DNA from: a virus
Reading direction: 5' to 3' (one strand)
Length of the DNA stretch: 41,190 nucleotides
IMG/VR virus record: IMGVR_UViG_3300027533_000012
Location: 1-41,190 of that record
In this document: positions 5,791 to 37,921 of the stretch, piece by piece
Position numbering within the stretch: position 1 is the stretch's first letter
Layout: each line of letters opens with the position of its first letter
Notes under the pieces: generated by a model
What the model was told of the DNA's origin: nothing
Databases searched by the model: none
Seen by the model: only the letters and a program-made list of their open reading frames with translations
Translations under genes and position numbers: made by a program

Positions 5791-5805
5791 GGCCGAGGCC
5801 CTTGG

Positions 5806-6795
5806 TTAGGCCCGTCGGCGGCGCTTCCCCTCGTCTTTGGCGTTGTAGTAGCGGATATGGTCATCCAGGCTACTTGAAGCCGGGTCGGGGGGACCGTCGT
5901 CACGGGCAGGGCGTCCCGTCCGCACGGGAGTGAGCGGACGTGGCGCAGACGAACGACCCGTAGGCACCGCTGATCCCGTTGGAGCAGCAGACGATACCCG
6001 CGACTGTAGCAACCGGCTCACTGCGGCGATTGACTGAGCGTCAACAGGCGTGTTCTGTGTGGACAACGCCAGACTCAGGGCTTCGTCGAGGTTCTTGCCG
6101 AGGTAATAGGCCAATGCGGGTCCAGACTCGTGAGAGTCGAGGACCGCACGCATGACCGAACTGATACGGAGGTCGGGATTGAACACGACCTCTTGGAAGT
6201 CTTCATGGTCCCGTTCAAACGACGTGACCCGTGCGGCGAGGGCTTCCTGCGCTTTGGCGTGTTCCGCCTTCTGCTTCTCGGCGTGGATGGCCTGTTCGCG
6301 CTTCGTGAGCGCCGTCTCGGCCTTCCAATCCGCCATCGCTTCAATCCACGCGCCGAGCGGGTCCGACTCGCCTTGGAACTGCTCAAAGGTCGGCTTGCCT
6401 GAAGGCTCAACAGACGCCGGTGAAGCCGCCTGCCCGGAGACTGCGCTTGGAGTCGCAGTGACTGGAGCGGCCACCGGTGCCGGCTGAGTCTTCAGACGAG
6501 CCGTCAGCGTGTTGACCCGGTGCCGGAGTTCCCGCACCGCATCTTTCCGAGACGCCTTCGTAAACTGTCCGGTCTTGAGACTCCGAAAGCCCCATTCGCC
6601 GTCTGCGTCCTGCTCGGGTTCGGCCTCCGCTGACGAAGCAGGCGTCTCGGTGGACGTGGGCGCCTCGTCAGCGGCAGGGAGTGGGGCCGAGTCCTGAGCC
6701 TGCGCTGTCTCAATCTCCGGCGCCGCCTTCACCGCGGCAGGAGCGTCGCCGTCGGCTGTGAATGCGCTGGTATCGTTCTGGATCGGTGCCGCCAT
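5806..6795 (-). CDS. scaffolding protein
   Basis: 329 aa with an acidic low-complexity N-terminus, a charged helical centre (AEKQKAEHAKAQEALAARV) and a basic end (KRRRRA). It lies between the portal and coat genes. Confidence 0.6.
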   Translation of the reverse strand: MAAPIQNDTSAFTADGDAPAAVKAAPEIETAQAQDSAPLPAADEAPTSTETPASSAEAEPEQDADGEWGFRSLKTGQFTKASRKDAVRELRHRVNTLTARLKTQPAPVAAPVTATPSAVSGQAASPASVEPSGKPTFEQFQGESDPLGAWIEAMADWKAETALTKREQAIHAEKQKAEHAKAQEALAARVTSFERDHEDFQEVVFNPDLRISSVMRAVLDSHESGPALAYYLGKNLDEALSLALSTQNTPVDAQSIAAVSRLLQSRVSSAAPTGSAVPTGRSSAPRPLTPVRTGRPARDDGPPDPASSSLDDHIRYYNAKDEGKRRRRA

Positions 6796-9047
6796 CAGGA
6801 TTGGTCGCTATTCTGCGCCGATTGCGCCTGTTCTGCAAGGGTCTGCTCATGCTGCCGGCCCATTTCAGCCTCGGATGACTGCAACACCCGGTCCTGTTCA
6901 CGCTGCGCAGCATCAAACTCCCGCCCCGCTTCCGCATGTCCGACCTCGAGCGCCGCATCCGTCTCCGCCATCGCCCGCTGATGCGCCTGTTCCTTCGTCT
7001 GGTGGATGCCTTCCCGTGTCGCCGCCAACGCTTCCTTCAGAATCAGCGTCTGCTGCTCCATCTGGGCCTGCATCGACGCAATGGCGAGCTTGACCTGGTT
7101 GTCGCGGGCGTCCATGCGCTCATCGGCGGCAATCTTCATCTGCTGAATCATCGCTTGCGACTGCGCCTTGACCTGCTCGGTCTGGATGAACTGGGTCTTC
7201 GCTTCGAGTTCCTTCGCCATCGCCTGATTCTGCTGCCCGAGCGCCTGCATCTGCGCCTGCACCTGTGGCGGAATCGGCTGCTGTCCTTGCTCCTTCGCGT
7301 CCAACTGCTGGAGTATCTGCGGCGGGAGCATCATCCGGGCGCGCTCTTTCATCTGCTGCGACCCCGGCCAATCCTGCGCGGCAAAGAACAAGTCCGCATA
7401 CGCGGGGAACAGCCCCGGCTGCGACGTCAGAATCTCGCCCATCGACGCTGATTCCTGCTCTCGCCGCGTGTCATACGCCTTCCCAACCTTGACCGCAATC
7501 GTCCAGTCCGTATCCGGCGTGAGCTTGTAGGTCGTCGCATTCGGCGCCCCCGGCGGCGCGACCATAGGACGGCCCTTCTGCATCACGAACGGCTGACCAA
7601 TCATCACGGTTTCCGGGTCCGTGTCACCCTTGATGATTTGCGCGAGACGGCCCTGCCGGTCGTAAATCTTCGGCAGCAGGTCATTCACGATCCGGCCTTC
7701 ATACGTCATAGACCGGGCCATGTTGTGCAGATAGTCGCTGGTCCCGTGCTCGGTCTGCTTCTGCAAGGCCAGAATTGCGCGTCCGCTCTTGATGGTCGGG
7801 TCCACTTCCCCGAGGCTCGAGGATGGGATGCCCGTCGTATCGTGGATGCCCTGAGAGAACTGCCCAATCGCCATCGCAATCGCCTGAATCGGCGGCTCGA
7901 CGGACTGGCGCATCGGCGGCGGCAACGTCTCGCCTGAGACGGTCGTCGGCTTGTATTGCAGATACGGGATGTTCCGGCTGTTCGCCAGCTGAAACTCCAT
8001 CTCGTGCCCTTCGAACTGCCCCTCAGCCCCGACCCACGGCGCCCGCGGTGCCAGCCCGATGGATTCCACCATTGCGGACACCATGTAATTGAACCCGCGC
8101 TGGGAGTCCATCGACGTCTCGACCATGCCAATCTCGCGGCGGTCCCCGTCGAACGGCTGCAACTCCTCTCCTACGACCTTCACGATGGGAATGAACCGCC
8201 CCGGCCAGTCCGTCTCGTCGAGCACTTCCTGCCCGTTGATCTTGGCCCACTTGATGGTCCGCTCGGTCGTGTCCCGGCCGCTCTCGGTCTTGATGGGTTT
8301 CAGGACCTCGTAGAAATACTCGGCCACGCGGACGAACTTGACCTTCTCTGTCTCCCGAAACCACGGCGAGGCGTCCTGCATCAGCGTCCGCCAGTCGGCG
8401 TCATCGCTGTAGCGCGTGGCGACCTGCGACTCAGGAAACTCCGATTTGAAAGCCTCAAAGGACATGTCCGTGAACACGAACGCCCACCGCGCATCGGACC
8501 CGTCCGGTTCTTCATGCGCCGGGTCCAGCATCACGTTCGCCTGATTCCAGATGCGCTGGATGACAATCTCCTGGTCATCCGACTTCGGCGACACATACTG
8601 CGTCGAGACACGCCAGAAGCCGCGGCCAGCGATGACGGCCCGAGAGAAGCCCCACGAGCGCGCCGACTGCGCGTGCGAATGCCGCTGGATGCGCCGGATG
8701 AGCCCTTCCCGTAGCTCAATCTCCTCGTCGCTGATGGGCTGCACGCCCTCCAGCCCGAAGTCATCCGCCGGGACGAGTTCGACACCCATGTCGGCATTGC
8801 GCTCCTGATTGAGCACCTGCCGCACGGGCTGCTTGATTTTATTGATGGTCAGACACGGCCGCGGCGGGACGGGAGGCAGACGGTTGCTCGACTGCTGCCC
8901 TGAGCGGTCAGCCCGGACATCGGCCGGCCACTGGTCATCCTCGTAAAACTTCAGCGCCTCTAACTCGCGCTTCCGCTGTGCGGCTTCAGCTTCGGCCGCT
9001 TGGTCGAATCGAGCGCGGGCGAGGACGACTAGCGGGGATTCAGCCAC
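6795..9047 (-). CDS. portal protein with long C-terminal helical barrel (P22-like)
   Basis: 750 aa with a GTG start, located between the terminase and scaffold genes. The last ~190 aa are Gln/Ala/Glu-rich and predicted to be a continuous helix, as in the P22 portal barrel. Confidence 0.8.
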   Translation of the reverse strand: MAESPLVVLARARFDQAAEAEAAQRKRELEALKFYEDDQWPADVRADRSGQQSSNRLPPVPPRPCLTINKIKQPVRQVLNQERNADMGVELVPADDFGLEGVQPISDEEIELREGLIRRIQRHSHAQSARSWGFSRAVIAGRGFWRVSTQYVSPKSDDQEIVIQRIWNQANVMLDPAHEEPDGSDARWAFVFTDMSFEAFKSEFPESQVATRYSDDADWRTLMQDASPWFRETEKVKFVRVAEYFYEVLKPIKTESGRDTTERTIKWAKINGQEVLDETDWPGRFIPIVKVVGEELQPFDGDRREIGMVETSMDSQRGFNYMVSAMVESIGLAPRAPWVGAEGQFEGHEMEFQLANSRNIPYLQYKPTTVSGETLPPPMRQSVEPPIQAIAMAIGQFSQGIHDTTGIPSSSLGEVDPTIKSGRAILALQKQTEHGTSDYLHNMARSMTYEGRIVNDLLPKIYDRQGRLAQIIKGDTDPETVMIGQPFVMQKGRPMVAPPGAPNATTYKLTPDTDWTIAVKVGKAYDTRREQESASMGEILTSQPGLFPAYADLFFAAQDWPGSQQMKERARMMLPPQILQQLDAKEQGQQPIPPQVQAQMQALGQQNQAMAKELEAKTQFIQTEQVKAQSQAMIQQMKIAADERMDARDNQVKLAIASMQAQMEQQTLILKEALAATREGIHQTKEQAHQRAMAETDAALEVGHAEAGREFDAAQREQDRVLQSSEAEMGRQHEQTLAEQAQSAQNSDQS

Positions 9048-9375: not shown

Positions 9376-10782
9376 TCAACTCATCCAACCCAGTGACCCA
9401 CCCATCGCCGCATACGCCGGCTTCCGGGCCTTCTCGATCGGCCGCTCCCGCACCGCCAGCCCACGAAATGCATCCGCCGCATGGCTCGAGAAATCATGCA
9501 CCGGCGTGTCCTTGAACTCGTTCAGCGCCGTATTCCACGCCCGCCGATAGTGCCGCAACCGCTCCAGCCCCACTTGGCACTTGACCTCGTCGAACCAGCA
9601 CCGGGCCATCGCCAGCCGTGCCGCGTGAATCCCATCCTCCAGCCCGATGTTCGGCGTGACCTCAAACTTGAGTCCGAGCCCGAACGCAATCTCGCGCCGG
9701 GACTTGCCCGAGCCGAGCTCACGGACCTCGATATCGTGCGGCGCCCAATGCTCACCGTAAGCGTATTTGCGGTCGGCCAGCACCTTCACGTAGTGCGGCA
9801 GTCCTTCCCCGCTGGCCTCGTAGTAGTCGATGAGTCGTATCTCACCTGACCCGAGGCGCTGCGAGAACCAGATGGCGGTGCTGTCGCCCACGCCCAGGTC
9901 CCAATCGGTATCGACCCGGAGACGGGCATCATACGGCACGCGGCAGATACGGCCGTCGGCCTTCGCCTGCCCTAACTCTTTGGCGTAGATGGCGCCCTTG
10001 ATGGCGGCATCGGCGGACAGGAACCACTCCTGATCGAACTCGTCCTGTGTCATCACGCCCTGAACCACCAGCGCGCGCTCGTCCTCCATCGCCTGCCTGA
10101 GCGCGTCAATCGTGGCCCCGGCCTCAGTCGCCAGTGACTTGTCGATGTCCTGCCACAGCGCGAACCAGTCGCCGGCATCCTTCGCCGCGGCGTGCATGAC
10201 ATACAGCTTGTCCCGGCCCTTGATGGTGCCGCAGAACACGCCATACCCCAACTGATCCGCCAGCGCCTTCGAGATGACCTCGCCGAAGGCGTTGTCGGCA
10301 ATCTGGCTGTATTCGTCGAGGGATGCGCCGGCGAGGCCCAGCCCGCGAAGGCTATCAGGACTGTCCGCCCCAACCAGCGTCAGGATGTTGCCGTTGGGAT
10401 ACGTCACGCTCAGTTCAGACTCGTTGAACTTCACGCCAGGCACCGGGCGCGCGATGTCCTTGAGCATGAGCCAGGCCGTGCCCTTCGCCTGCTTGTAGCT
10501 CGGCATGACGTGGGCATACTGCCGGCGCTTCGTGAGCAGCCCGGAGACGGCCTCGGGCTTGTGCGGCAGCAGCGTGGTCAGGCGCCGACGCTCCCAGTCG
10601 TTATCGAGCGCGGCCCGTTGGTGGTGGTTGATGACACAGGTGGTTTTACCAGCACGGCGATGCAGGATGAGACAGGCCCACCGGCGGAACGAGGCATGGA
10701 ACGGACGCGCCCACATGCGGGGCGTGTAGGGAATGTCGATGATCCGGGCCTCAGGCTTGACGGCCTTGGCCTTGAACGGCAC
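9376..10782 (-). CDS. terL: terminase large subunit
   Basis: 468 aa. Walker A-like HRRAGKTT, Walker B-like GASLDEY, and nuclease-domain acidic motifs DWDLGVGDSTAIW and HDFSSHAADAF. Confidence 0.9.
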   Translation of the reverse strand: MPFKAKAVKPEARIIDIPYTPRMWARPFHASFRRWACLILHRRAGKTTCVINHHQRAALDNDWERRRLTTLLPHKPEAVSGLLTKRRQYAHVMPSYKQAKGTAWLMLKDIARPVPGVKFNESELSVTYPNGNILTLVGADSPDSLRGLGLAGASLDEYSQIADNAFGEVISKALADQLGYGVFCGTIKGRDKLYVMHAAAKDAGDWFALWQDIDKSLATEAGATIDALRQAMEDERALVVQGVMTQDEFDQEWFLSADAAIKGAIYAKELGQAKADGRICRVPYDARLRVDTDWDLGVGDSTAIWFSQRLGSGEIRLIDYYEASGEGLPHYVKVLADRKYAYGEHWAPHDIEVRELGSGKSRREIAFGLGLKFEVTPNIGLEDGIHAARLAMARCWFDEVKCQVGLERLRHYRRAWNTALNEFKDTPVHDFSSHAADAFRGLAVRERPIEKARKPAYAAMGGSLGWMS

Positions 10783-12742: not shown

Positions 12743-13174
12743 ATGGAAACCGTGACCCGTATGCCCTTCGTGACCGAGAAGATGCGCGACGTCGAACGCG
12801 GCCTCATCCGCATCATCGCCACGAAACTTCACACGCTCGACTGCCTCCGGCGAGGCGTCTACAACGACTTCGACGAACTGCCGGAACACGAACAGGCGAA
12901 GATGCTGCGCGTGGCGACGATGGCCGCGGGAGCGGTCAACACCCAGACGCAGCAGCTGGCCCTCGGCGCGGCAGGATTGGCCATCATGAAGACCATCGAA
13001 GGCCATATCGACGCGGTCGTGGAGCACTGGGAAGACCACAGCCATGCCGACGTCGTGCGCGAGGCCCTCGTGACCGGCGACCGGATCAACCTGCTGTCGG
13101 GGCTGCGCGCGAGCATTCCCGGCATGGTGGACGCCGCGGCGAAGGCCGCATTTGCGAAACTGGAGACGCGATAA
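12743..13174 (+). CDS. hypothetical early protein
   Basis: 143 aa from ATG 12743, preceded by GAGGAG. Confidence 0.55.
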   Translation: METVTRMPFVTEKMRDVERGLIRIIATKLHTLDCLRRGVYNDFDELPEHEQAKMLRVATMAAGAVNTQTQQLALGAAGLAIMKTIEGHIDAVVEHWEDHSHADVVREALVTGDRINLLSGLRASIPGMVDAAAKAAFAKLETR

Positions 13175-13893
13175 TGACGACTTCCGAACAGATTACCGAC
13201 CTCGCCACGGCGCTGGCGAAGGCCCAAGCCAAGGTCCAGGGCGCGAAGAAGGATGCGGAGAACCCGCACTTCCGCTCGAAGTATGCCGACCTCGCGTCCT
13301 GCTGGGATGCGTGCCGCGAAGCCTTGACGGTAAACGGCCTGTCGGTCGTCCAGTCGCCACGGCTCATCAACGTCGGCGAAGGCGCGTGGATGGTCGAGGT
13401 CGAGACGATGCTGCTCCACGGCTCCGGCCAGTGGATTCGTGACGCTATCGCCGTGCCGCTGTCGAAGATGGACGCGCAGGGCGCAGGGTCCGCCATCACC
13501 TACGGCCGGCGCTACGCTCTCGCCGCCTTTGTTGGCATCGCCCCAGAGGACGACGACGCCAACGCCGCGGTCGGCAGTCATCCCGCACCGGCTGCGCGTC
13601 CTGCCGCACCGCCAGCGGCTCCCAAGGGTGGTCCCGTGCAAGTCGTGACCGTGACGCCGAAGCCCACGAGCAAGCCTGGAATCATCCGCCATGAGGTCAA
13701 GTTCTCAGACGGGACCAAGGCGGCGACCATCTCCGAGCGGCTGGCGAAGCAGGCGACCGACGCCCGCGACAGCGGCGATACGGTGCGGCCCGTGTTTAAG
13801 ACGACCAACTTCGGGACCGACCTCGTTGGCTTCAACTCCACGCCCGCCAGCGACGAAGGCCCGTCCATGCTCGACGACGAGCCCCCGTTCTAA
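13174..13893 (+). CDS. ERF-family single-strand annealing protein
   Basis: 239 aa. LAKAQAKVQGAKKDAENPHFRSKYADLASCWDACREAL and GSAITYGRRYALAAFVGI are typical ERF motifs. The C-terminal tail is Pro/Ala-rich. Confidence 0.8.
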   Translation: MTTSEQITDLATALAKAQAKVQGAKKDAENPHFRSKYADLASCWDACREALTVNGLSVVQSPRLINVGEGAWMVEVETMLLHGSGQWIRDAIAVPLSKMDAQGAGSAITYGRRYALAAFVGIAPEDDDANAAVGSHPAPAARPAAPPAAPKGGPVQVVTVTPKPTSKPGIIRHEVKFSDGTKAATISERLAKQATDARDSGDTVRPVFKTTNFGTDLVGFNSTPASDEGPSMLDDEPPF

Positions 13894-16012: not shown

Positions 16013-16327
16013 ATGAATCTGACCGAATATCAACGCGCCGCGAAACGCACGAGCCTCGCCGAACCGCACCGCGAACGGCTCATGGTGCAGGCGCTCGGCC
16101 TCTGCGGCGAAGCGGGCGAAGTCGCCGACCTCATCAAGAAATGGGCCTGGCACGACAAGGAACTCAGCCGTGACGCGATGGCCGACGAACTCGGCGACGT
16201 GCTCTGGTATGTCGCGGACCTCGCCAGCGCCATGAACCTGTCGCTGGACTTCATCGCCGAGCAGAACGTGGCGAAACTGCTGAAACGGTTCCCGGACGGC
16301 TTCGTGACCGGCGGCGGTATCCGATGA
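16013..16327 (+). CDS. mazG: MazG-like nucleoside triphosphate pyrophosphohydrolase
   Basis: 104 aa from ATG 16013, preceded by AAGGAGAG. LGLCGEAGEVADLIKK and ELGDVLWYVADLA are the EXXE/EXXD helices of the MazG fold. Confidence 0.8.
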   Translation: MNLTEYQRAAKRTSLAEPHRERLMVQALGLCGEAGEVADLIKKWAWHDKELSRDAMADELGDVLWYVADLASAMNLSLDFIAEQNVAKLLKRFPDGFVTGGGIR

Positions 16328-17622
16328 GCGCCTACGCCGACTTCCTCGACAAGAAGCGCCGCGTGGCCGCACCGCTCGGCATCGGCCTCGAGGCCCCACT
16401 GCCTGACCTGCTCTTTCCGTGGCAGCGCGCCATTGTGAAATGGGCGGCGAAGAAAGGCCGTGCCGCGATTTTTGCTGATTGCGGACTCGGCAAGACGTTC
16501 ATGCAACTGGCCTGGGCGCAGGCGATGGGCGCCAAGACGCTGATTCTGGCCCCGCTCTGTGTCGCCGAACAGACCGCCGATGAAGCCTCGAAGCTCGGGA
16601 TGGTCGTGCCGTATGCCCGAAAACAGGCCGAGGCCATCGGCGCCTACAGCATCACGAATTACGAACGGCTCGACGACTTTGACCTCTCCCAGTTCGGCGC
16701 GGTCGTGCTCGACGAGTCCAGCATCCTGAAAGCCTTCGACGGGACCACGCGCACGAAGTTGATTGAAGCGTGCGCCCGTGTCCCGTATCGGCTCTGCTGC
16801 ACGGCCACCCCGAGCCCGAACGACATCAGCGAACTCGCCAACCATGCCGAGTTCCTGGGGCTGATGACCCGTGCCGAGTTTCTGGCGTCCTGGTTCATTC
16901 ACGACAGCGACGGCTGGCGGATGAAGGGCCACGCGCGGCAACCGTTCTACCGCTGGCTGGCCTCGTGGGCGATTGCGTTCCGGAAACCGTCTGACCTCGG
17001 CTATTCGGATGACGGATTCGTGCTGCCGGAACTCGTCATCAAGGACCACATCCTCGAAGTCGATGGGCCTGCGTCTGGTTCGCTGTTCCCCGAGATGGGC
17101 ACCAAGGGACTCAAGGGCCGTCTCAGCGCCCGCAGGGCTTCACTGGAGTCACGGACGGAGGAATGCGCGCGTCTCGTGCTGCATCATGCGCCCCAGTGCC
17201 AGTGGCTCGTCTGGTGCGGCCTCAACGAGGAGAGCGAGACGGTCGCTGAACTGACGGGAGGCCTCGAAGTCTCCGGGGCAGACAGTTACGACGAGAAGCG
17301 CCATGCCGTCCTGAGTTTCACGTCGGGCGAGACGCGGACGCTCATCAGCAAGCCGCGGATTCTCGGCTACGGCATGAACTTCCAGCACTGCCACCACGCC
17401 ATCTTCGTCGGCCTCGGCGACAGCTACGAGCAGTATTACCAGGCCATCCGCCGATGCTGGCGGTTCGGGCAAAAAACGAAGGTCACGGCGCATATCGTCA
17501 TCTCGGAAGCCGAGCGCGTGATCGTGGAGAATGTCCGTCGCAAGGAAGCCGCCGCCGCGGACTTGTCCGCATCCCTGATTGACCATATGCGCGATTTTGA
17601 GCGCGAGGAGTTAGCCGTATGA
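16324..17622 (+). CDS. SNF2/DEAD-like superfamily-2 helicase
   Basis: 432 aa. Motif I is DCGLGKT, motif II is VLDESS, CCTATPSPN is present, and the C-terminal helicase lobe has YGMNFQ and QAIRRCWRFGQ. Confidence 0.85.
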   Translation: MSAYADFLDKKRRVAAPLGIGLEAPLPDLLFPWQRAIVKWAAKKGRAAIFADCGLGKTFMQLAWAQAMGAKTLILAPLCVAEQTADEASKLGMVVPYARKQAEAIGAYSITNYERLDDFDLSQFGAVVLDESSILKAFDGTTRTKLIEACARVPYRLCCTATPSPNDISELANHAEFLGLMTRAEFLASWFIHDSDGWRMKGHARQPFYRWLASWAIAFRKPSDLGYSDDGFVLPELVIKDHILEVDGPASGSLFPEMGTKGLKGRLSARRASLESRTEECARLVLHHAPQCQWLVWCGLNEESETVAELTGGLEVSGADSYDEKRHAVLSFTSGETRTLISKPRILGYGMNFQHCHHAIFVGLGDSYEQYYQAIRRCWRFGQKTKVTAHIVISEAERVIVENVRRKEAAAADLSASLIDHMRDFEREELAV

Positions 17623-18500
17623 TCCGCCGCACCGACCAGCCCGACTGGACCCTCATCAACGATGACTGCATCGAGGCCCTCGGCCGGGAGATTGCCGACG
17701 ACAGCATCGACCTGTCCGTCTACTCACCGCCGTTCTCCAGCCTCTACACCTACTCGGCCAGTGAGCGCGACCTCGGGAATTGCGCCAACGAGGGCGAGTT
17801 CTTCGAGCACTACGCCTTCCTGATTCGGGAGATGTTCCGGGTCACGAAGCCGGGCCGTCATACCTGCGTCCATGTGGCGGAACTGACCAGCACGCTCCAG
17901 ACCCACGGCGTCATCGGGCTGATCGACTTCCCCGGCATGGTCATCCGGGCCTACATGGCGTGCGGCTGGACGTATCACGGCCGCGTGACCATCGACAAAG
18001 ACCCGCAGGCGCAGGCCATCCGGACGCATTCCAAGGGCCTCCTGTTCGTCCAACTCCGCAAGGATTCGACGTGGAGCCGACCGGCGCTGGCCGACACGAT
18101 TCTGATCTTCCGCAAGCCGGGAGAGAACGCCGTCGCCGTCAATCCCGACATCACCAACGACGACTGGATCGAATGGGCGCGGCCGATCTGGTATGGCATC
18201 CGCGAGTCGGACACGCTGAACGTGGACGTGGCCCGCGAGAACGACGACGAGCGCCACATCTGCCCGCTCCAACTCGGGACGATTGAACGCTGCATCCGGC
18301 TCTGGTCGAATCCGGGCGAACTCATCCTGTCTCCGTTCGCCGGCATCGGGTCCGAAGGCTACGAGGCCATCCGGTTGAATCGTCGGTATGTCGGCGTCGA
18401 ACTCAAGGCCAGCTATTACGACGTGGCTGTGCGGAATCTCCGAGCCGCCGAACAACTCCGGACGCAGGGCACGCTGTTCGCCGACGAGCACACGGCATGA
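17619..18500 (+). CDS. beta-class N4/N6 DNA methyltransferase (SPPF motif, possibly m4C)
   Basis: 293 aa. Catalytic motif IV (DLSVYSPPF) comes before AdoMet motif I (ILSPFAGIGSEG), the order typical of beta-class enzymes. There is a 4-nt overlap with the helicase gene. Confidence 0.85.
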   Translation: MIRRTDQPDWTLINDDCIEALGREIADDSIDLSVYSPPFSSLYTYSASERDLGNCANEGEFFEHYAFLIREMFRVTKPGRHTCVHVAELTSTLQTHGVIGLIDFPGMVIRAYMACGWTYHGRVTIDKDPQAQAIRTHSKGLLFVQLRKDSTWSRPALADTILIFRKPGENAVAVNPDITNDDWIEWARPIWYGIRESDTLNVDVARENDDERHICPLQLGTIERCIRLWSNPGELILSPFAGIGSEGYEAIRLNRRYVGVELKASYYDVAVRNLRAAEQLRTQGTLFADEHTA

Positions 18501-19488: not shown

Positions 19489-19558
19489 GCTTGATTAGCT
19501 CAATTGGTAGAGCACGGGCTCACGCCCGGTGTAATGGGTTCGAATCCCATATCAAGCT
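19489..19558 (+). tRNA. tRNA-like gene with a truncated 4-nt anticodon loop (non-decoding or pseudo-tRNA)
   Basis: Acceptor stem GCTTGAT/ATCAAGC, D arm GCTC-AATTGGTA-GAGC, anticodon arm CGGGC-TCAC-GCCCG, variable region GTGTA, T arm ATGGG-TTCGAAT-CCCAT, then U73 followed by CC. Confidence 0.75.
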
Positions 19559-19586
19559 CCTGCATAGGAGCAACCGACACTCAGAA

Positions 19587-20498: not shown

Positions 20499-20796
20499 GC
20501 GCGACGAGACGACGCGGCCCCTGACGGCCGAGATGGTGAAGCGATTGCGGGCTGAAGTTGCAGACATGCTTGAGCCACCAGCGTGGTCGCGCATGCACAT
20601 CGAGCCACTGACGTTGCTGGCCCTTCTGGACGCCCTCGACGCCCGAGAGGCGCAGACGTGCGGGACGTGTAAGTGCGCCGTGAAGTGGAACGAAGGGTTG
20701 ACCCTCTGTGAGATTGGCGTGCGCCGAGACGCCGACCTGATGATCAACCCCATCGCGTTCGGCTGCAACCAGTGGGCCGCGAAGGAGCCAAAGTGA
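20491..20796 (+). CDS. hypothetical protein
   Basis: 101 aa containing CGTCKC. Confidence 0.5.
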   Translation: MTERDETTRPLTAEMVKRLRAEVADMLEPPAWSRMHIEPLTLLALLDALDAREAQTCGTCKCAVKWNEGLTLCEIGVRRDADLMINPIAFGCNQWAAKEPK

Positions 20797-21161
20797 AGGC
20801 GATCACGATTTGCCAGCCCTACGCCGACATGATCGCGAAGGGCGAGAAGGTCATCGAGAACCGGACGTGGCCGACGAATCTGCGAGGACGCATCGCCATT
20901 CACGCGGGCAAGTCTCGCGAATGGCTCGACGACGGAGACGAGGTCGCGCGTCCAGGCATGCCGTTCGGTGCCATCGTCGCCACGGCCGTCCTCTACGACT
21001 GCCAGCGAGTCGAGAAGTTACACGCCGACCTGCAAGGCAGAGACGACGCCAACGGGCCGTGGTGCTTTCTGCTATGCGACGTGCAGGCATTCACTGAGCC
21101 TATTCCCGCGAATGGCGCGCAGGGATTTTGGGAGTGGGCGGAGAAGGAGCCGAGGACATGA
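20793..21161 (+). CDS. ASCH domain protein
   Basis: 122 aa from GTG 20793, preceded by GAAGGAG. KAITICQPYADMIAKGEKVIENRTWPTNLRGRIAIHAGK is a typical ASCH N-terminus. Confidence 0.7.
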   Translation: MKAITICQPYADMIAKGEKVIENRTWPTNLRGRIAIHAGKSREWLDDGDEVARPGMPFGAIVATAVLYDCQRVEKLHADLQGRDDANGPWCFLLCDVQAFTEPIPANGAQGFWEWAEKEPRT

Positions 21162-21547
21162 GCCTGTTGGGACGTGACCCTGACGCTGACGAGCCGCCCG
21201 CGCCGCGATGTGTGCAGTGCGGGCAGGAGCGTGGCCCCTCGCATACGGCCGCAAATCACCTTTGGACGCCCGCGCCGGAAGGCCCCTACACGTTGATAGC
21301 GCACGGAGGCCCCGCGCCGACGTTCACGGCTGAGGAGTTTGATGCTGCTGCCGTGCATAAGCGGAAGGTTGCCGGGTATTGGCGAAGTCTCGACGTGCAA
21401 CACGAGGTCGTGCGATTTGAGAAGGACGCTGAGATGCTGGAGTTCGCCGCGTCCCTCGTCAGGCGGGAGGAGCAGCTAGTGGCCGCGTTGCGGAAAGTGA
21501 CGGATACGGTTGAACGCATGACGGCTAAAGCCACGGAGGCCCCATGA
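21158..21547 (+). CDS. hypothetical protein, first member of a junction-repeat gene trio
   Basis: 129 aa ending ...KATEAP. The stop/start junction is repeated at 21928-21955. Confidence 0.55.
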   Translation: MSLLGRDPDADEPPAPRCVQCGQERGPSHTAANHLWTPAPEGPYTLIAHGGPAPTFTAEEFDAAAVHKRKVAGYWRSLDVQHEVVRFEKDAEMLEFAASLVRREEQLVAALRKVTDTVERMTAKATEAP

Positions 21548-21945
21548 CCCCTGACCGCCCCGACGAGACGCTGGCACCGCTGCTGACGAAGTTGCGTGAG
21601 CCTGTCGTATTCCGCAGTCGATACGACAGCAGCCTGATGAACCTTGCGGCTGAGACTATCGAGCAGGAGCGCCGTCTCTCCGCCGAGAAGGACGCCACGA
21701 TTGCCGCGCTGACTGCGGCATGGGCTGACCGCGCGTCAAAACTTGCGGACACGCAGCACGGGCTGGAGACGCACGCGCGGATTACAGACCGCATGCTGGC
21801 CGAGAAGGACGCCACGATAGCCGACCTTGAACAACGAATCCGCAGGTTCTCGGAAGAAGTGCGGCACGTGTCGGTGCGGATGGCGAACAGCCTGATGACG
21901 CCTGAGCGATTGCGCGAGCTGCTGAAGCCCACGGAGGCCCCATGA
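21544..21945 (+). CDS. coiled-coil protein, paralogue of the N-terminal part of 21942..23156
   Basis: 133 aa starting MTPDRPDETLAPLLT and ending ...PTEAP. Contains two LSAEKDAT/LAEKDAT repeats. Confidence 0.55.
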   Translation: MTPDRPDETLAPLLTKLREPVVFRSRYDSSLMNLAAETIEQERRLSAEKDATIAALTAAWADRASKLADTQHGLETHARITDRMLAEKDATIADLEQRIRRFSEEVRHVSVRMANSLMTPERLRELLKPTEAP

Positions 21946-23164: not shown

Positions 23165-24505
23165 ATGCGCTTCCACCCCACGCGCGGCACGCTCTGCGGC
23201 GGCAAAGGCACCATCGCCCTCTGGGTCTGGGACTGGTATACCCACGAACCCAAACGGCTCCTGACCAATCCTGACGGCTCCCAAGCGATGGGCGGCGATA
23301 TCTGTTGGTTAGCCGAGACGGCCATCAGCCAGGTCGTCAACCCGACGCCGAAACTGGTCCAGTTCCCGACCGCGCTGAACTACCAGCAGCAGCCGTGGCC
23401 GCAGTCGGAAGGCGGCGGCAACCAGATGCGCGCCACCGGCAAGGTCGGATGGGCCTGCACCTTCGCCAACCCGCTCAACACCTACGGCACGTATCCCGAT
23501 GGCACACCATTCACCGGCTCGAAAGAATGGATTCTGGACGCCGACGGCGACACACTTGTGTTTTCTGACCCAGCAGACCCCACATGGGCTGAACTTGAAC
23601 CGTATCTCAAACTCGGATTACATGACTACTACCCGCGCACGGTTGATGCGCGTTGGGCGCCGGACTACCTACCCGATTCCGTGCGTCTCAAAGGCCGCGT
23701 GCTGGTCTACTGCCTCGCGCATGGCGTGAAGCTCCAAGTCGAGATTGACGGCCTCCCGGTGCAGGTCCAGACGACCGGAGACGGGCAATGGTCGCCGCTC
23801 GGGTTTGAAGTGAACGGCGTGCTCTACCTCTGGTATTTCGCCAGTGACGCGCTCGGGACCATCTTGCACCGCGCCGACGATGCCACCCGAGGCGCCAGAA
23901 CGCCATCTGCGTGGTCGAAAGACGTCTGGATGGACCCGAGTGGCCGTGTCTGGCTCGGGTTCGCCACCAACGAAGCGGAGAGCATCGACAGCGCGCAGGT
24001 CGTCGCGCTCGATTCGCTGCCGTGGGAAGCCTTTCACCATCCGGACCCACCCGATCCGCCTGACCCGCCGGACCCGCCAGACCCTCCGGTGCCACCTATT
24101 CCCCCGGAGCCACCTGTGCCGACCACGCGCAAAGTCTCGATTGCGACCCGTGTCCTCAATACCCGCTTCGGCGAACCCTCGCAAGGCTACGAGGAGCGGC
24201 CGACGTTCGACAAGCCGTTATCCCCCTCGGACCCGTGGCCGATGAAGGCCGGGATGATTCAAGGCGACGAGACGTATACCCTCCGGACCTCGCCGACCGG
24301 CGTGCCGTATCTCCAATGGCCGCACGGGCAAGTCATTGCCGTGCGAAAGCCCAACGGCGAACTCGGCGAGACGGCGTGGCCGGGAGAGTCTTACGAACCA
24401 GGTATCGACGAGCGGCTGAAAGCGACCGCTCAGTCTGGCGTCTATGTCGAAGCGGAGCCGCCGGCTGGACGTGCCGCGGTAGCGTTCGCGCTGGTGCTCC
24501 TTTGA
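23165..24505 (+). CDS. upstream ORF of a candidate two-frame gene; contains a (PDP)n Pro-rich linker; function unknown
   Basis: 446 aa with coding GC3 throughout. The linker is HPDPPDPPDPPDPPDPPVPPIPPEPPVP. The ORF ends CTC CTT TGA C. Confidence 0.7.
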   Translation: MRFHPTRGTLCGGKGTIALWVWDWYTHEPKRLLTNPDGSQAMGGDICWLAETAISQVVNPTPKLVQFPTALNYQQQPWPQSEGGGNQMRATGKVGWACTFANPLNTYGTYPDGTPFTGSKEWILDADGDTLVFSDPADPTWAELEPYLKLGLHDYYPRTVDARWAPDYLPDSVRLKGRVLVYCLAHGVKLQVEIDGLPVQVQTTGDGQWSPLGFEVNGVLYLWYFASDALGTILHRADDATRGARTPSAWSKDVWMDPSGRVWLGFATNEAESIDSAQVVALDSLPWEAFHHPDPPDPPDPPDPPDPPVPPIPPEPPVPTTRKVSIATRVLNTRFGEPSQGYEERPTFDKPLSPSDPWPMKAGMIQGDETYTLRTSPTGVPYLQWPHGQVIAVRKPNGELGETAWPGESYEPGIDERLKATAQSGVYVEAEPPAGRAAVAFALVLL

Positions 24506-24506
24506 C
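24500..24506 (+). promoter_or_regulatory. candidate programmed +1 ribosomal frameshift site CUU UGA C (prfB type)
   Basis: The exact heptamer lies at the only interval (24483-24503) where frame 2 and the start-less frame 0 can be joined. Confidence 0.5.
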
Positions 24507-25478
24507 GACCCGGCCCACCCGTGGCGCACTGGCGCTGACCTGCTACACGTCCACGGCGATTACGGGTCCGTCACCGACTCCCGCGGCTGGGCGCAGTTCT
24601 CACCGTTCTTCCTGACCTTCCTCGACGGCTGGCATCCTGAATACGCGGAGGAATGGGCGCAGAACTGGCGCAGCCGCGGCTACACGCACATCGCGCTCGG
24701 GCGGAACTACGACTACCCCGGCTCCCCGATTCCAGGCCGAGACTTCACCCCGCAGCAGTTCTGCGGCTATGTCCGTCGCGTGCTCGACATGGGCTTCAGC
24801 CCGATCTGCTTCCTCGCCGCCGACACGCCCGAGCAGCCCATCCTCGAGACGACGCAGGCACTGAAAGACGCGGGACTGCTGCCCTACGTCATCTGCGTGC
24901 CGGCGTGGGAACCGATACCGACGAACTACTGGCGCAGTGTGCAGATGTCGAATGCACTGGAGGGCATGAAGGCCATCGGCGGCAGCGAGATTGTCCTCGG
25001 GGTTCACTTGCAGCCGGGACGCTGGTCGATGGCGTCCTTCGCAGGCGTGATTCCGGCAACTGACCCGACACCACCCGGCACCGCCGTGCTCGAGGAGTTC
25101 GTCGACCCCGAGACGGGCGTGCTGATGAAATACCTCATCGAGGACGACGACCCGTGGCGCGGTGACGAGCAGGATGCGTGGAAGTCCCACGGCGGGCAAT
25201 ACGTGGACATCTTCCTGTATCAGTTTGAGCACGGGTTCACGCAGACGACGGCCCCGGACTGGCAGAACCGCTGGCGCGATGGGATTCCCCGGATGGGCAA
25301 CGGCTTGAACGGCTGGCGCGTGATGCCTGTCTGCGCCTTCGAGACGGTGCTCTATGATTCCTACCGCGGGAACTGCAACGAGACACGCGCGCGGGAGATT
25401 GCCGGCGAAGCCCGAGACATTGCCTGGAAAGAGTTCGGCGTGTCCGTCACGTTTGGAAACGGTTGTCCGCTTACTTAG
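24504..25478 (+). CDS. start-less +1-frame ORF with a TIM-barrel glycoside-hydrolase-like domain (tentative), probably read through from 23165..24505
   Basis: The frame is open from 24483 with no ATG, GTG or TTG before 24780, yet GC3 over 24540-24779 is about 85-90% by hand count. VPAWEP and LYQFEH are candidate catalytic Glu motifs. Confidence 0.55.
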   Translation, partial: DDPAHPWRTGADLLHVHGDYGSVTDSRGWAQFSPFFLTFLDGWHPEYAEEWAQNWRSRGYTHIALGRNYDYPGSPIPGRDFTPQQFCGYVRRVLDMGFSPICFLAADTPEQPILETTQALKDAGLLPYVICVPAWEPIPTNYWRSVQMSNALEGMKAIGGSEIVLGVHLQPGRWSMASFAGVIPATDPTPPGTAVLEEFVDPETGVLMKYLIEDDDPWRGDEQDAWKSHGGQYVDIFLYQFEHGFTQTTAPDWQNRWRDGIPRMGNGLNGWRVMPVCAFETVLYDSYRGNCNETRAREIAGEARDIAWKEFGVSVTFGNGCPLT

Positions 25479-25889: not shown

Positions 25890-26101
25890 AGCATCCGCTA
25901 TCGCCGGAGTTCTACGAGGCGTTGACCGAGTGGGATGAGCACCTTCGGCGGCTATCCTGCGCCTACATACAGGGCATGGCCGCTGAATACGACCGCATCT
26001 TCACCGAATCACCAGCACTCCCGGCTCCCGATGGAGCCAGCACACGGCGCCCACAACCGCCGCGAGTAGACCTGCCCACCAGCGGGCTCGGCCCAGACTA
26101 G
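25886..26101 (+). CDS. hypothetical protein; the 3' end overlaps the M50 gene antisense
   Basis: 71 aa with ATGA-type coupling. The last 101 nt are antisense to 26001..26840. Confidence 0.35.
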   Translation: MKHPLSPEFYEALTEWDEHLRRLSCAYIQGMAAEYDRIFTESPALPAPDGASTRRPQPPRVDLPTSGLGPD

Positions 26102-26840
26102 GCTCCAGCCACGACACCGGACTCGGCGCTGGCCCCGTGAGCAGCATCACCACGCCGACAAACAGCCACGTCAGCAGATGCGTGGCCTGCCAGGTCACGG
26201 GAATCCAGCAGGCGTAGGACACCCACTGCGCCCGCTTCGCCCCGATGAGGGCTGAGACAATCTGCCCGCCATCGAACGACCCATACGGCAGCAGGTTCAC
26301 GCCGGTCATCACCAGCCCAATCCACCCCGCCACCGCCACCGGATGCCAGACGACGGTCTGATGGCTGTAGAGATACTTCTGCCACGCCAGCGCCAGCCAC
26401 GGCTGTCCGAGCCGCGACAAGCCGTCTGAGGCGTCAGACGGAGCGGACCAGCCCATCGACACCAGCAGGATGACGATCGCGGCCGCAAAGCCCGCCAGCG
26501 GCCCGGAGAGGGCCACGTCGAACAAGGCGCGGCGAGAGGGGAACGGACCCGCGACACGGATGGTCGCCCCGAGCGTGCCCGTGACCAGGAACGGCGCCGG
26601 GATGAAGTAGGGCCCGGTCCATCGGATGCGGTAGTGGTCGATGACGACCAGATGGGCGGATTCGTGCAGGCCGATGATGCCGTGGAGCGCGGCGGAGAAG
26701 GCCAGCCCGTAGCCCCACGAGGCCCAGAACGGCAACCAGACGCCCGTGGCGGCCTCGTGGTAGCCGATGCCGTGGAACATGCCCGCCAGCGTCGTGGTCG
26801 CCCACGTCGCCAGCCAGAGCCCCACGACGCGACGGGTCAT
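26001..26840 (-). CDS. M50-family site-2 (intramembrane) metalloprotease
   Basis: 279 aa, polytopic. It has HESAH (an HExxH motif) in a hydrophobic segment and NLLPYGSFDGG (the NxxPxxxxDG second S2P motif). Confidence 0.8.
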   Translation of the reverse strand: MTRRVVGLWLATWATTTLAGMFHGIGYHEAATGVWLPFWASWGYGLAFSAALHGIIGLHESAHLVVIDHYRIRWTGPYFIPAPFLVTGTLGATIRVAGPFPSRRALFDVALSGPLAGFAAAIVILLVSMGWSAPSDASDGLSRLGQPWLALAWQKYLYSHQTVVWHPVAVAGWIGLVMTGVNLLPYGSFDGGQIVSALIGAKRAQWVSYACWIPVTWQATHLLTWLFVGVVMLLTGPAPSPVSWLEPSLGRARWWAGLLAAVVGAVCWLHREPGVLVIR

Positions 26841-35595: not shown

Positions 35596-36794
35596 CAGCT
35601 AATCCCCGGCTCGAGGTCCATGTAGGCCTGCACCAGTCCCCACGCGACCGGATCGGAACACGTCACGCGGAAGACCCAATCTCGGGCCTGCCCGAGCTGC
35701 CACCAGATGACGCGCTGGCGGTATTCCCCGAGCTTGCCGACCGACATGGGCATCGACGCGCCCCAGGTCGCGCCGCCATCCTTCGAGATTTGCAGGTGGA
35801 TCATCGGGTCCGAGCCCTGCCCCTGCGACGTGTTCAGCCCCACGCCGACATCCATCCACAGTTCGAAGTTGTGAATGAACGTCCACTGGCCTTGATTGGC
35901 GATATGCGGCGACTGGCGCAGTCGACGAATCAGCCGACGATTGGAGGTAATCGGCGCACAGCCATTCTCGCCGGGGATGACGGGCGCGGTCTCGTTCTGA
36001 AACTCCACCGTCGTTATCTCGCCTTCGGTGAGTTCAATCGCATCGGCGGTGCCGTCGCTGACGACAATCGCCGCTTGAGACCAGCCGCAGACTTGCCCCT
36101 CTGAACAGAAGTATTCGACCTCGGGATCGAGCCCGACATACGTGACCGAGTCGCCGCCTTTGAGCGTGAAGGTCGCCGGGTCCAGACCGGGACCGACGGT
36201 GATGATGAACTCCGCCGTCGGATCATCGACATTCGTCGTCTTCGAGAAGGTGATCCCCGTATCGCCCGCACCCTCAGCGACGAGAAACTCTCCGAAGGCG
36301 AATCCAAACTCAATCGTCTCTGTGTCGAAATCACGCATCGTGATCGACGTAATGGTCTGACCGACCGGCGCATACCACCCGAAGCCAGAGGCCCCGTTTT
36401 CCGCCTCTACCGGCTGCGTCCCTGATGTCGTGCCATCACTCGCTGAGTAGACGACCGTGAACGTCGAGAAGACGTTCGGCTCCATATACCACATGAACGC
36501 GCCGACATTCGGCGGGAGCGAGATGGTAAAACTTTCGAGGTCGTCTGGGAACTCCACGAAATACAGGTCGCCGGTATAGCCGTGGCTCCACGTCGCCCAG
36601 CCATCCCCGACCTTCGTATGCACCATCGGGATACTGAACGTGATATTGCCGCCGACGACCGGACACGGCACCGTCGTGACGAGATCGTGATTGGGCCGTG
36701 CGTCATTCGCAAACGCCGTGAGCGTATACGGACCTGCCGTCGCCGGAGGCGCATCCGTCGACAACGGCGTCGGCAGAAACTGCGTCATCGCCAC
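35595..36794 (-). CDS. tail/virion protein with an Asp-box (BNR) motif
   Basis: 399 aa. ISKDGGATW matches SxDxGxTW. Confidence 0.4.
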   Translation of the reverse strand: MAMTQFLPTPLSTDAPPATAGPYTLTAFANDARPNHDLVTTVPCPVVGGNITFSIPMVHTKVGDGWATWSHGYTGDLYFVEFPDDLESFTISLPPNVGAFMWYMEPNVFSTFTVVYSASDGTTSGTQPVEAENGASGFGWYAPVGQTITSITMRDFDTETIEFGFAFGEFLVAEGAGDTGITFSKTTNVDDPTAEFIITVGPGLDPATFTLKGGDSVTYVGLDPEVEYFCSEGQVCGWSQAAIVVSDGTADAIELTEGEITTVEFQNETAPVIPGENGCAPITSNRRLIRRLRQSPHIANQGQWTFIHNFELWMDVGVGLNTSQGQGSDPMIHLQISKDGGATWGASMPMSVGKLGEYRQRVIWWQLGQARDWVFRVTCSDPVAWGLVQAYMDLEPGIS

Positions 36795-37921
36795 TAGGGC
36801 ACCACCAGGTCATCGGCATACAAGTCCAGCCGCATCTCGTAGATGACGCCCGTCGAGCGGTCCCCGACCAGATGCGTGTTGTAGCAGTAGGCGTGATTAC
36901 GCGCCGGATGCGGCTCAAACTGGATGCTGGTCTCGGGATTCCACAGCGCCCGCTCGTGCCACGCCTGTGTCGAGACGTCATAGACCCACGTCGTGGACAA
37001 CGACGGCACCAGCAACCAGAGGAAGGCGTGCCCCTCGTCCTGCTGCGCGAACATCAAGGCCCCGACCAGATTCGGCGCCTGATTCAGCGCGAACTCCACC
37101 GCATGGGTGGACACCCGCTGCGCGGCATACCCATTCGCCCGCACGACTTCACGCGCCCCGTTCTGGTTCTCCGTCAGCCAGTAGAGCGTGTTGTCGAGAT
37201 TCGCAAACGCAAACGGCGCCGCGATGCCGATCTCCACGAACCCACCTTGAATCGGCTCAAACGGGAACGAGCCATTCCCGGAGTCATACCAGGGATTCGT
37301 CGTCTTCGTGCCCCACAACCAGACTTCGCGGTGCGAGAGGCCCATCGCAATCGGCGTATCAGCGGCTTGGCTGACCTGCGCGACGTCGAGCCCGTCCCAT
37401 TCCAACCCATCTTCGAGCGACGACAGTTGGAACCCGCCCGGATACAGGCTCAGGAAGTAGCCATCGGTGAACAGGCCCATGATCGTCGGCGTGTTGAACC
37501 CGTCATCGGTAATCTCGCCAAACGTCTCGACGTTCAGGTCGAAGATGTAGCCGTGCCCGCCTGACGTGATGAACAGTTGATGGCCCCCGAGACCGTTGCT
37601 GGAGATGGTCGCCGGGTTCTCATCCACCGCAACCACGCCCCGCAGGATGATCGTCCGATTGGCGTAGACTTCGTAGAACCCGGACCCACCGACCGCGAAC
37701 AGTCGCCGATACGTGCTCTCGTAGAACAGGCACCGCACCGACCCGGCCAGCAGGTTCACAAACGGCTGGATACCGGGTGTGCCGATGAAGTAGGGATCGC
37801 CGGCCGGACTGTTCCCGTCGGCCCGCTCGAGATAGAAGTTGACCGTCCGCTCCACGTCAGCGCGACGGGACCGGACCTTCCCAGAGCCCCCCACGAATCC
37901 CGGCACGGCGACACGGGCCAT
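36794..37921 (-). CDS. beta-propeller-like virion protein (tentatively P22 gp10-type tail hub or stabilisation protein)
   Basis: 375 aa. N-terminal VERTVNFYLE and repeated beta-blade-like segments, judged from position and memory of the family. Confidence 0.35.
   Translation of the reverse strand: MARVAVPGFVGGSGKVRSRRADVERTVNFYLERADGNSPAGDPYFIGTPGIQPFVNLLAGSVRCLFYESTYRRLFAVGGSGFYEVYANRTIILRGVVAVDENPATISSNGLGGHQLFITSGGHGYIFDLNVETFGEITDDGFNTPTIMGLFTDGYFLSLYPGGFQLSSLEDGLEWDGLDVAQVSQAADTPIAMGLSHREVWLWGTKTTNPWYDSGNGSFPFEPIQGGFVEIGIAAPFAFANLDNTLYWLTENQNGAREVVRANGYAAQRVSTHAVEFALNQAPNLVGALMFAQQDEGHAFLWLLVPSLSTTWVYDVSTQAWHERALWNPETSIQFEPHPARNHAYCYNTHLVGDRSTGVIYEMRLDLYADDLVVP

Follow-up and report, generated by a model that had tools for sequence, protein, structure and literature searches.

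Organization of the locus

The DNA analyzed here (the window) is the whole of IMG/VR virus record IMGVR_UViG_3300027533_000012 (41,190 nucleotides (nt)), and our subject is a locus between 23165 and 25478 at which a 446-amino-acid (aa) open reading frame (ORF1) meets a second coding region, in the +1 frame relative to ORF1 and devoid of a start codon, at the heptamer CTT TGA C. The same heptamer serves for +1 frameshifting in prfB, the bacterial gene for release factor 2 (RF2). The features of the locus are collected in Table 1. An earlier reading of these letters made without database searches (the sequence-only reading) had described ORF1 as ending CTC CTT TGA C and the +1 frame as open from 24483 and coding, and both descriptions hold. 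ORF1 ends GCG CTG GTG CTC CTT TGA C (CTC, 24497-99; CTT, 24500-02; TGA, 24503-05; C, 24506), and the +1 frame is stop-free after a TAG at 24480-82 until a second TAG at 25476-78. Because of the first TAG, any change of frame is restricted to 24483-24505, in keeping with the claim that the two frames can be joined only at the end of ORF1.

The G/C content at third codon positions (GC3) changes frame near 24485. In the frame of ORF1 it drops from ~0.8 to 0.47-0.60, and in the +1 frame it reaches 0.85-0.90 at once, the start-less 24485-24780 included. The first canonical starts of the +1 frame are GTG 24780 and then ATG 24789; upstream of the GTG we found near-cognate codons only (CTG 24540, CTG 24612, ATC 24690 and ATT 24729), so that the reported absence of ATG, GTG and TTG before 24780 is borne out. 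The 2314-nt region from the start of ORF1 to the end of the +1 frame was present in assemblies from four different samples, with 0 differences in three of them and one single-nucleotide polymorphism, at 25430, in the fourth, and the junction is identical in all four. Gene callers annotate each assembly with a 446-aa protein and, after a 'gap' of ~280 nt, a 229-aa protein (P0004 in several databases).

Between the +1-frame TAG and the TGA there are seven zero-frame sense codons (GCG, TTC, GCG, CTG, GTG, CTC and CTT), and of these CUU alone is predicted to let its P-site tRNA pair again one base downstream. CTT is, as had been supposed, a rare Leu codon in this genome (31 of 926 Leu codons, or 3.3%, in 42 likely genes of the window). 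The + strand has three copies of CTTTGAC and the - strand has none, and one copy alone (24500-24506) lies in phase at the end of an ORF. The predicted products have 446 and 446+324 = 770 aa, the sizes given by the sequence-only reading, and the predicted junction of the longer one reads ...AFALVLL-DDPAHPWRTG..., with AAVAFALVLLDDPAHPWR as the predicted junction peptide. The sole tRNA of the phage is a tRNA-Val(CAC) at 19489-19560, which reads GUG. GUG is also the invariant codon two positions before CUU; we assume this to be a coincidence.

Conservation of the putative shift site across lineages

We compared the heptamer in four lineages, namely the window, L025, L001 and L003. L003 and L025 were found via the contigs of enzyme homologues (below); L007, and L010 found by pattern match, represent the same phage as L001. 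All four lineages have a common layout, in which a module of ~125 aa is followed by GCGTTCGC[G/C]CTGGTG-NNN-CTTTGAC and then by a domain in the +1 frame, so that the heptamer, the +1 phase and the two-frame arrangement, whose conservation the sequence-only reading had proposed as a check, recur in diverged phages and speak for that reading. The L001 protein P0001 ends at exactly the same residue as ORF1 (...AFALVSL, then stop). L001 reads GCG CTG GTG TCC CTT TGA CCC, and its +1 frame is open for 327 codons with a GC3 of 0.85 and lacks a start for 240 nt. In L003, the upstream ORF (4929-6035) has the module at 53-54% identity behind a PDPP linker and an N-terminal domain unlike that of ORF1, and ends GTG CGT CTT TGA C. 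L025, a closer relative of the window phage, has a 422-aa ORF1 ending GTG CTC CTT TGA C. In L001 and L025 the +1 frame has no start before the conserved motif of the downstream domain.

Of all 25-nt segments in the four-lineage alignment (607 columns), 24482-24506 is conserved best: 21 of its 25 columns are invariant, as against 42% of the columns for the module and 22% for 150 nt on the downstream side. Three runs in it are invariant, namely GCGTTCGC, CTGGTG and CTTTGAC, split by one variable position and one variable codon (CTC, TCC or CGT). Since the synonymous divergence (dS) of the module from the window is 0.64 in L001 and 1.33 in L003, passive retention of a rare Leu codon, the TGA and the C after it is unlikely.

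On the 3' side of the heptamer the lineages diverge sharply. L025 has nine extra nt directly 3' of it, and because this is a multiple of three the +1 reading is kept. The +1-frame domain of L001 (11862-12845) has no detectable similarity to the enzyme domain of the window (hhalign probability 0.4%) and no Pfam match. Because the lineages diverge right behind the heptamer, the conserved unit is the module together with the shift site, and the alignment suggests that module and heptamer can carry different downstream domains, with one example among the four lineages. In a search for additional loci, a DNA pattern scan of IMG/VR with TTCGCNCTGGTGNNNCTTTGAC matched L010, which is a true locus, and also L008 and L009, which are unrelated low-GC DNA matched by chance; megablast and tblastn against 50,697 GenBank phage records gave no match. 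Among 5.8 billion and 1.84 billion proteins, no relative was found with an extra base that would make one module-enzyme ORF. The four agreeing assemblies and the diverged lineages settle the concern of a 1-nt assembly error.

The +1 frame encodes an enzyme-like domain

With the 324-aa translation of the +1 frame as the query we obtained 17 homologues. When 1.84 billion representative proteins were scanned with HMMER, 111 clusters were listed for the domain, many of them with signal peptides of the lipoprotein type. Full-length homologues align from PWRTGADLL on, six codons past the heptamer. Seven of the 32 family-invariant residues (D37, G40, W63, H74, Y83, P84 and G85; alignment A4) are encoded by 24504-24788. 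The ratio of nonsynonymous to synonymous divergence (dN/dS, omega) of the start-less stretch is 0.14 at a dS of 0.62 vs 0.13 for the rest of the domain (reference, the 80%-identical stand-alone gene in L004). By these values the start-less stretch is under the same purifying selection as the remaining domain, which agrees with the high GC3 in marking the +1 frame as coding.

The AlphaFold model of the domain, built from an 18-sequence alignment, has a predicted local distance difference test score (pLDDT) of 88.5 and a predicted template modeling score (pTM) of 0.87, and shows alternating strands and helices. The start-less part forms one strand and three helices in it (pLDDT about 90), and a 229-aa product from ATG 24789 would, according to the model, be without all of this structure. 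The junction residues (model residues 1-15) have a pLDDT <50 and are predicted to be disordered, contrary to the earlier impression of a continuous beta-strand across the junction.

The sequence-only reading had also called the domain a triosephosphate isomerase (TIM)-barrel glycosidase-like one. The modeled fold is alpha/beta barrel-like, and the glycosidase part is not established. Foldseek against the PDB returned generic TIM barrels only, with template modeling (TM) scores of 0.26-0.39 when query-normalized and up to about 0.5 when target-normalized (E>1e-3). Against BFVD it returned one uncharacterized phage protein (TM 0.74, E 4e-26), which we judge to be a true homologue, and weak matches to phage glycosyl hydrolases (TM 0.44-0.53), a weak structural hint of a glycosidase identity. 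By sequence the domain has no Pfam match at E<=1 and no PHROG match, and a PDB sequence search gave nothing better than E 0.16, so that no known family was assigned; by the Pfam and PDB sequence searches it is not a member of a described glycoside hydrolase family. A scan of GTDB genomes with the domain gave no match. The gene has no similarity to RF2, and all its homologues are uncharacterized proteins; Pfam and PHROGs matched none of ten long family members, except for weak PEGA/CarboxypepD_reg matches in P0026.

The family alignment contains invariant carboxylates, E148 (AWEP), E292 (FET) and E225-x-D227-D228 (E-x-DDPW), and signal peptides are frequent among cellular relatives. Because of these two features we hypothesize that the C-terminal domain is an extracytoplasmic hydrolase; it may be a carbohydrate-active enzyme that acts on the host envelope. 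Judged from their sequences, many distant members appear to have the enzyme behind a lipoprotein-type signal peptide and an immunoglobulin (Ig)-like domain. The distant viral homologues L018-L024 have their own starts or signal peptides, hence they add no frameshift case.

ORF1 and its conserved module

ORF1 consists of three parts (Table 1). The N-terminal region differs in sequence in P0001/L001 and L003, which have the C-terminal module alone in common with ORF1. PDPP linkers precede the module in L001, L003 and L025, and in the in-frame fusion P0002 such a linker directly precedes the enzyme domain. The module has an omega of 0.27-0.37, and among the matches listed from the 1.84 billion representative proteins P0001 is the only one to it. 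ORF1 has no Pfam or PHROG match, and its AlphaFold model, from a 2-sequence alignment, has a pLDDT of 30. A profile search with the module alignment gave no match and failed to recover even P0001, and module scans of IMG/VR and GTDB genomes gave no match, nor did Pfam and PHROGs scans of the upstream ORFs of the relatives.

Proposed frameshift

We propose that ORF1 and 24504-25478 form one recoded gene, in which a programmed +1 ribosomal frameshift on CUU_U at the UGA_C stop yields products of 446 and 770 aa, and we put the probability of this reading, based on the comparison of sequences, at roughly 0.75. Most ribosomes would terminate at UGA 24503-05 and release the 446-aa protein with its variable N-terminal region, PDPP linker and ~125-aa module. 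In a fraction of ribosomes, holding peptidyl-tRNA-Leu on CUU 24500-02 and the poorly terminating UGA-C in the A site, the tRNA would slip one base forward from CUU to UUU; GAC would be read next as the first of 324 codons in the +1 frame, giving the 770-aa protein with the C-terminal alpha/beta-barrel enzyme-like domain. Because UGA is read by RF2 alone, the shift would compete with this factor, and for this reason the ratio of the long to the short product should fall with rising RF2 activity. From mutational work on prfB, we expect shifting to be modest in frequency, the 446-aa protein predominating over a minor 770-aa fusion product.

In single-frame relatives, reading continues without a break across the boundary that corresponds to the shift site. 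P0027 reads in a single frame ...SVLLVMAPVPSPPVTWRTGEALL..., collinear with ...AFALVLL-DDPAHP-WRTGADLL, and the shift site therefore sits at a domain boundary. In P0002 the enzyme domain is fused in frame behind the PDPP linker, after which the sequence reads WATGADLLRVRGNF. The N-terminal part of P0002 (L002 4886-7018) contains two QxDxNxVxY-like motifs (NQSDGNGVLY and MQSDGNLVAY), which we take to resemble those of bulb-type mannose-binding lectins; Pfam does not report this domain.

Several observations weigh against the proposed frameshift. The purine-rich, AGGGGG-like Shine-Dalgarno (SD) sequence that prfB has 3 nt upstream was looked for at the site and is absent, as the sequence-only reading had warned. 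The sequence before the shift codon is GCGCTGGTG-CTC, in which GGTG alone can pair with the anti-SD (4 bp); this weak SD-like GGTG (24493-96) lies inside the conserved 15 nt, 3 nt before the shift site, and GGAG-type SDs are frequent before this phage's own genes. Folding of 80-96 nt on each side of the site in three lineages, with shuffled controls, showed no significant RNA structure (z-scores -0.2 to -1.6), and Rfam has no match at the site. Because the prfB-type SD, an RNA structure and an Rfam match are all missing, the frameshift efficiency could be low. That ribosomes shift here we infer from comparison, and with the SD stimulator of prfB absent their frequency of shifting and its dependence on RF2 are likewise inferred. 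The independent lineages are few (four), and the window and L001 are unusually alike over ~55 nt before the site, which could reflect a recent exchange. In the +1 frame of L003 a GTG lies 35 nt before the stop, and an independent start is therefore possible in that lineage. Several relatives have a separate enzyme gene, so that fusion is not obligatory for function, and one further contig, L016, has the +1 layout with a sense codon in place of the stop (both are taken up below). The 15 nt that are conserved upstream of the site may be another kind of stimulator or reflect a mere constraint from the AFALV peptide, between which four sequences are too few to separate.

A more far-reaching idea, which we consider doubtful, is that the module and its 25-nt 3' end (GCGTTCGCSCTGGTG-NNN-CTTTGAC) constitute a portable recoding cassette that hangs different cargo, either the barrel enzyme of the window or the dissimilar domain of L001, on a carrier protein, at a sub-stoichiometric level set by the RF2 activity of the host. 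If so, the phage would read the termination capacity or growth state of its host via the prfB signal, and the SD stimulator would have been dispensed with, a new 5' element being in its place.

Alternative explanations

Recoding at CUU could be real and not be governed by RF2, with the upstream 15 nt or the nascent AFALVxL peptide as the driver and the stop incidental. L016 would fit such a case. In this single 1135-nt contig (120-215), the enzyme domain lies in the +1 frame of an upstream ORF, without a start before the conserved motif, and the upstream ORF ends TTG CTT CGG CGA TAG, with CTT kept and CGG where TGA is expected; because CGG replaces TGA, L016 does not fit an RF2-dependent site. 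The strongest conservation also takes in the upstream 15 nt, and a prfB-like SD is lacking. Yet L016 could be a pseudogene or a read error as well as a variant shift site, TGA-C is invariant in all four module-bearing lineages, and a stop codon in the A site is the stimulus best documented for slippage on CUU_U (PMC5009743), and we regard a shift free of RF2 as unlikely. An ATG at 130 of L016 would give a 14-codon leader, MIGKAAAFSVLLRR and a stop.

The main alternative that remains is termination followed by reinitiation, in which ribosomes that have stopped at UGA 24503-05 would begin again close by, at a non-canonical codon, and make a separate enzyme coupled to ORF1. Coupling of this kind is seen in relatives whose enzyme is evidently functional unfused: the stand-alone gene overlaps the upstream one by GTGA in L005 and L006, by ATGA after a small Cys-rich ORF in L004, and by 10 nt in L017, where it starts with GTG behind a G-rich ribosome-binding site (RBS). 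The GTG of L003 also speaks for it. Homologues in which the downstream domain has its own start and RBS had been named in the sequence-only reading as evidence against recoding; the domain has its own start in these four relatives, and none before the conserved motif in the module-bearing L001 and L025. In the window itself there is no ATG, GTG or TTG in the +1 frame between 24483 and 24779, the nearest near-cognate codon (CTG 24540) falls after the conserved PWRTGAD motif, and the 6-11 codons between the heptamer and the motif contain no restart codon common to the window, L025, L001 and L003. Reinitiation would moreover leave the invariance of the rare CTT and of TGA-C unexplained, and there is no SD in front, making this explanation rather improbable.

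It is very improbable that the locus consists of two ordinary genes, the second starting at GTG 24780 or ATG 24789 (229-232 aa) and the upstream 276 nt being non-functional or decaying. Public gene calls do give the 229-aa P0004 in several databases. However, these 276 nt have a GC3 of 0.85-0.90 and an omega of 0.14, align with all full-length homologues, hold the invariant D37, G40, W63, H74 and YPG, are modeled with a pLDDT of about 90, and are kept in lineages with dS up to 1.3. A 1-nt indel, whether introduced during sequencing or assembly or by a recent mutation that inactivated an originally continuous ORF, is suggested by a single-base frame change at a short T run and is hardly credible given the identical sequence in the assemblies of four samples, the same phase change at the same heptamer in three diverged lineages, the lack of an uninterrupted module-enzyme ORF in both protein sets and the purifying selection on both sides.

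Two further mechanisms were rejected. Transcriptional slippage is ruled out by a T run of only 3 nt, and UGA readthrough or reassignment by the different frames of the two coding regions.

Genome context

The window appears to be a near-complete, circularly permuted phage genome of ~41.2 kb, and the same phage was also found as contigs of 41,186 and 41,204 nt; the window is without a match in the 50,697 GenBank phage records. The putatively recoded gene closes a rightward block of Erf, helicase and methylase genes and is convergent with a leftward block of terminase, portal, scaffold and capsid genes (Table 1). The homologous gene of L001 lies amid structural genes (SU10_adaptor), and that of L002 adjoins an M15 endolysin.

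Table 1. Features of the putatively recoded locus and other genes in the window (positions in nt).
Feature	Position	Strand	Remarks
ORF1 (zero frame)	23165..24505	+	446 aa, predicted termination product
Variable N-terminal region, ORF1 aa 1-290	23165..24034	+	kept in close relative L025
Pro/Asp-rich linker HHPDPPDPPDPPDPPDPPVPPIPPEPPVP, aa 291-319	24035..24121	+	similar PDPP linkers elsewhere
Conserved ~125-aa module ending ...GRAAVAFALVLL	24122..24502	+	77% identity to P0001, 53-54% to L003 ORF
TAG closing the +1 frame upstream	24480..24482	+	same TAG also in L001 and L025
Conserved 15 nt GCGTTCGCGCTGGTG 5' of the shift site	24482..24496	+	14/15 nt invariant across four lineages
Variable codon, in the E site at the moment of the putative shift	24497..24499	+	CTC in window, TCC in L001, CGT in L003
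Putative shift site CTT TGA C	24500..24506	+	P-site CUU would re-pair to UUU; A-site UGA then C
Whole +1-frame region, 324 aa + TAG	24504..25478	+	alpha/beta-barrel enzyme-like domain, C-terminal part of predicted 770-aa product
Start-less coding part (DDPAHPWRTGADLL...)	24504..24779	+	first 92 aa of enzyme-like domain
Major head	4561-5790	-	
Scaffold	5806-6795	-	
Portal	6795-9047	-	
Terminase	9376-10782	-	
Erf	13174-13893	+	
Helicase	16324-17622	+	
DNA methylase	17619-18500	+	
ASCH	20772-21161	+	
Head closure	36794-37921	-	

Three observations on the surroundings are noted in their own right. A homologue of Peptidase_M50 (site-2-protease family), which is unusual for a phage, is encoded at 26001-26840 on the - strand, convergent to the recoded gene, and an M50 neighbor is also present in L004, L011 and L012. 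Two consecutive genes of the window, starting at 21544 and 21942, have near-identical upstream contexts, (G/C)CCACGGAGGCCCC-ATG (21523-21546 and 21921-21944). In L003, the segment 2159-2690, some kb before the putatively recoded gene, contains on the other strand the genes of a BrnT/BrnA toxin-antitoxin pair and of an Ig-like (HYDIN/ASH-type) protein.

Comparison with known systems

Few cases of programmed +1 frameshifting are known from bacteria or bacterial viruses, and CUU_UGA_C is the textbook one. CUU_U before UGA_C is the canonical RF2 shift site and the most efficient +1 site known in bacteria (PMC5009743; bioRxiv 10.1101/2024.09.24.614795), and according to the PRFect paper all CUU-stop +1 cases in RECODE are prfB (PMC10885494). 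Our full-text literature searches, which were not exhaustive, found no phage case of CUU_UGA_C; within that limit, the statement of the sequence-only reading that a phage enzyme with the prfB heptamer had not been described stands.

The phage gene resembles prfB in the identical heptamer, which places CUU in the P site ahead of a UGA that has C as its next base, and in an indispensable continuation in the +1 frame without its own start, which implies competition with RF2. It differs in that prfB has a hyper-conserved internal SD of the AGGGGG type 3 nt upstream whereas the phage gene has GGUG only, in that the zero frame of prfB is a 25-codon leader whereas ORF1 encodes a 446-aa protein in its own right, and in that the phage product is not RF2, hence there is no autoregulatory loop.

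The tail-shaft gene tsh of Listeria phages PSA, A118 and A500 (CCC_UGA) is likewise a phage gene with a +1 slip in the P site on the last sense codon before UGA, and its short product and the one lengthened at the C-terminus share their N-terminus (PMC5009743). The codon proposed to slip here is CUU, in contrast to CCC there, and the extension is on a major structural protein there, whereas here a 324-aa enzyme-like domain would be appended. In yeast Ty1 and ABP140 (CUU_AGG_C), CUU is likewise the codon on which tRNA-Leu slips, during slow decoding of the codon in the A site, and the ABP140 shift links a targeting domain at the N-terminus with an enzyme at the C-terminus (PMC5009743). These systems are eukaryotic and have a hungry sense codon in place of a stop, which is possibly relevant to the CTT CGG of L016. 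Related phages have the same enzyme family in coupled or fused form. In L006 the enzyme gene immediately follows a gene that combines an N-terminal domain, a proline-rich linker and a small module, and in P0002 the enzyme is fused to such a gene. Unlike the gene of the window as we read it, these versions show no recoding and have a GTGA/ATGA overlap with a real start (L004, L005, L006 and L017) or a single frame (P0002 and P0027).

If the proposed frameshift is real, this locus would be a natural example of two phage proteins made in proportions that depend on a release factor of the host, and conserved use of the heptamer in phages would show that the site functions, or is under selection, without an SD stimulator and apart from the RF2 loop. 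It would also correct the annotation, in that public calls break the gene up into a 'hypothetical protein' of 446 aa and a truncated fragment of 229 aa, and it marks out an uncharacterized enzyme family whose phage forms are fused, coupled and, as we propose, recoded. Extension by a +1 shift at a stop codon (Listeria phages, CCC_UGA) and the CUU_UGA_C site (prfB) are each already known; unusual here are the lack of an SD stimulator and the conserved module-plus-site unit, which is followed by a different domain in one lineage.

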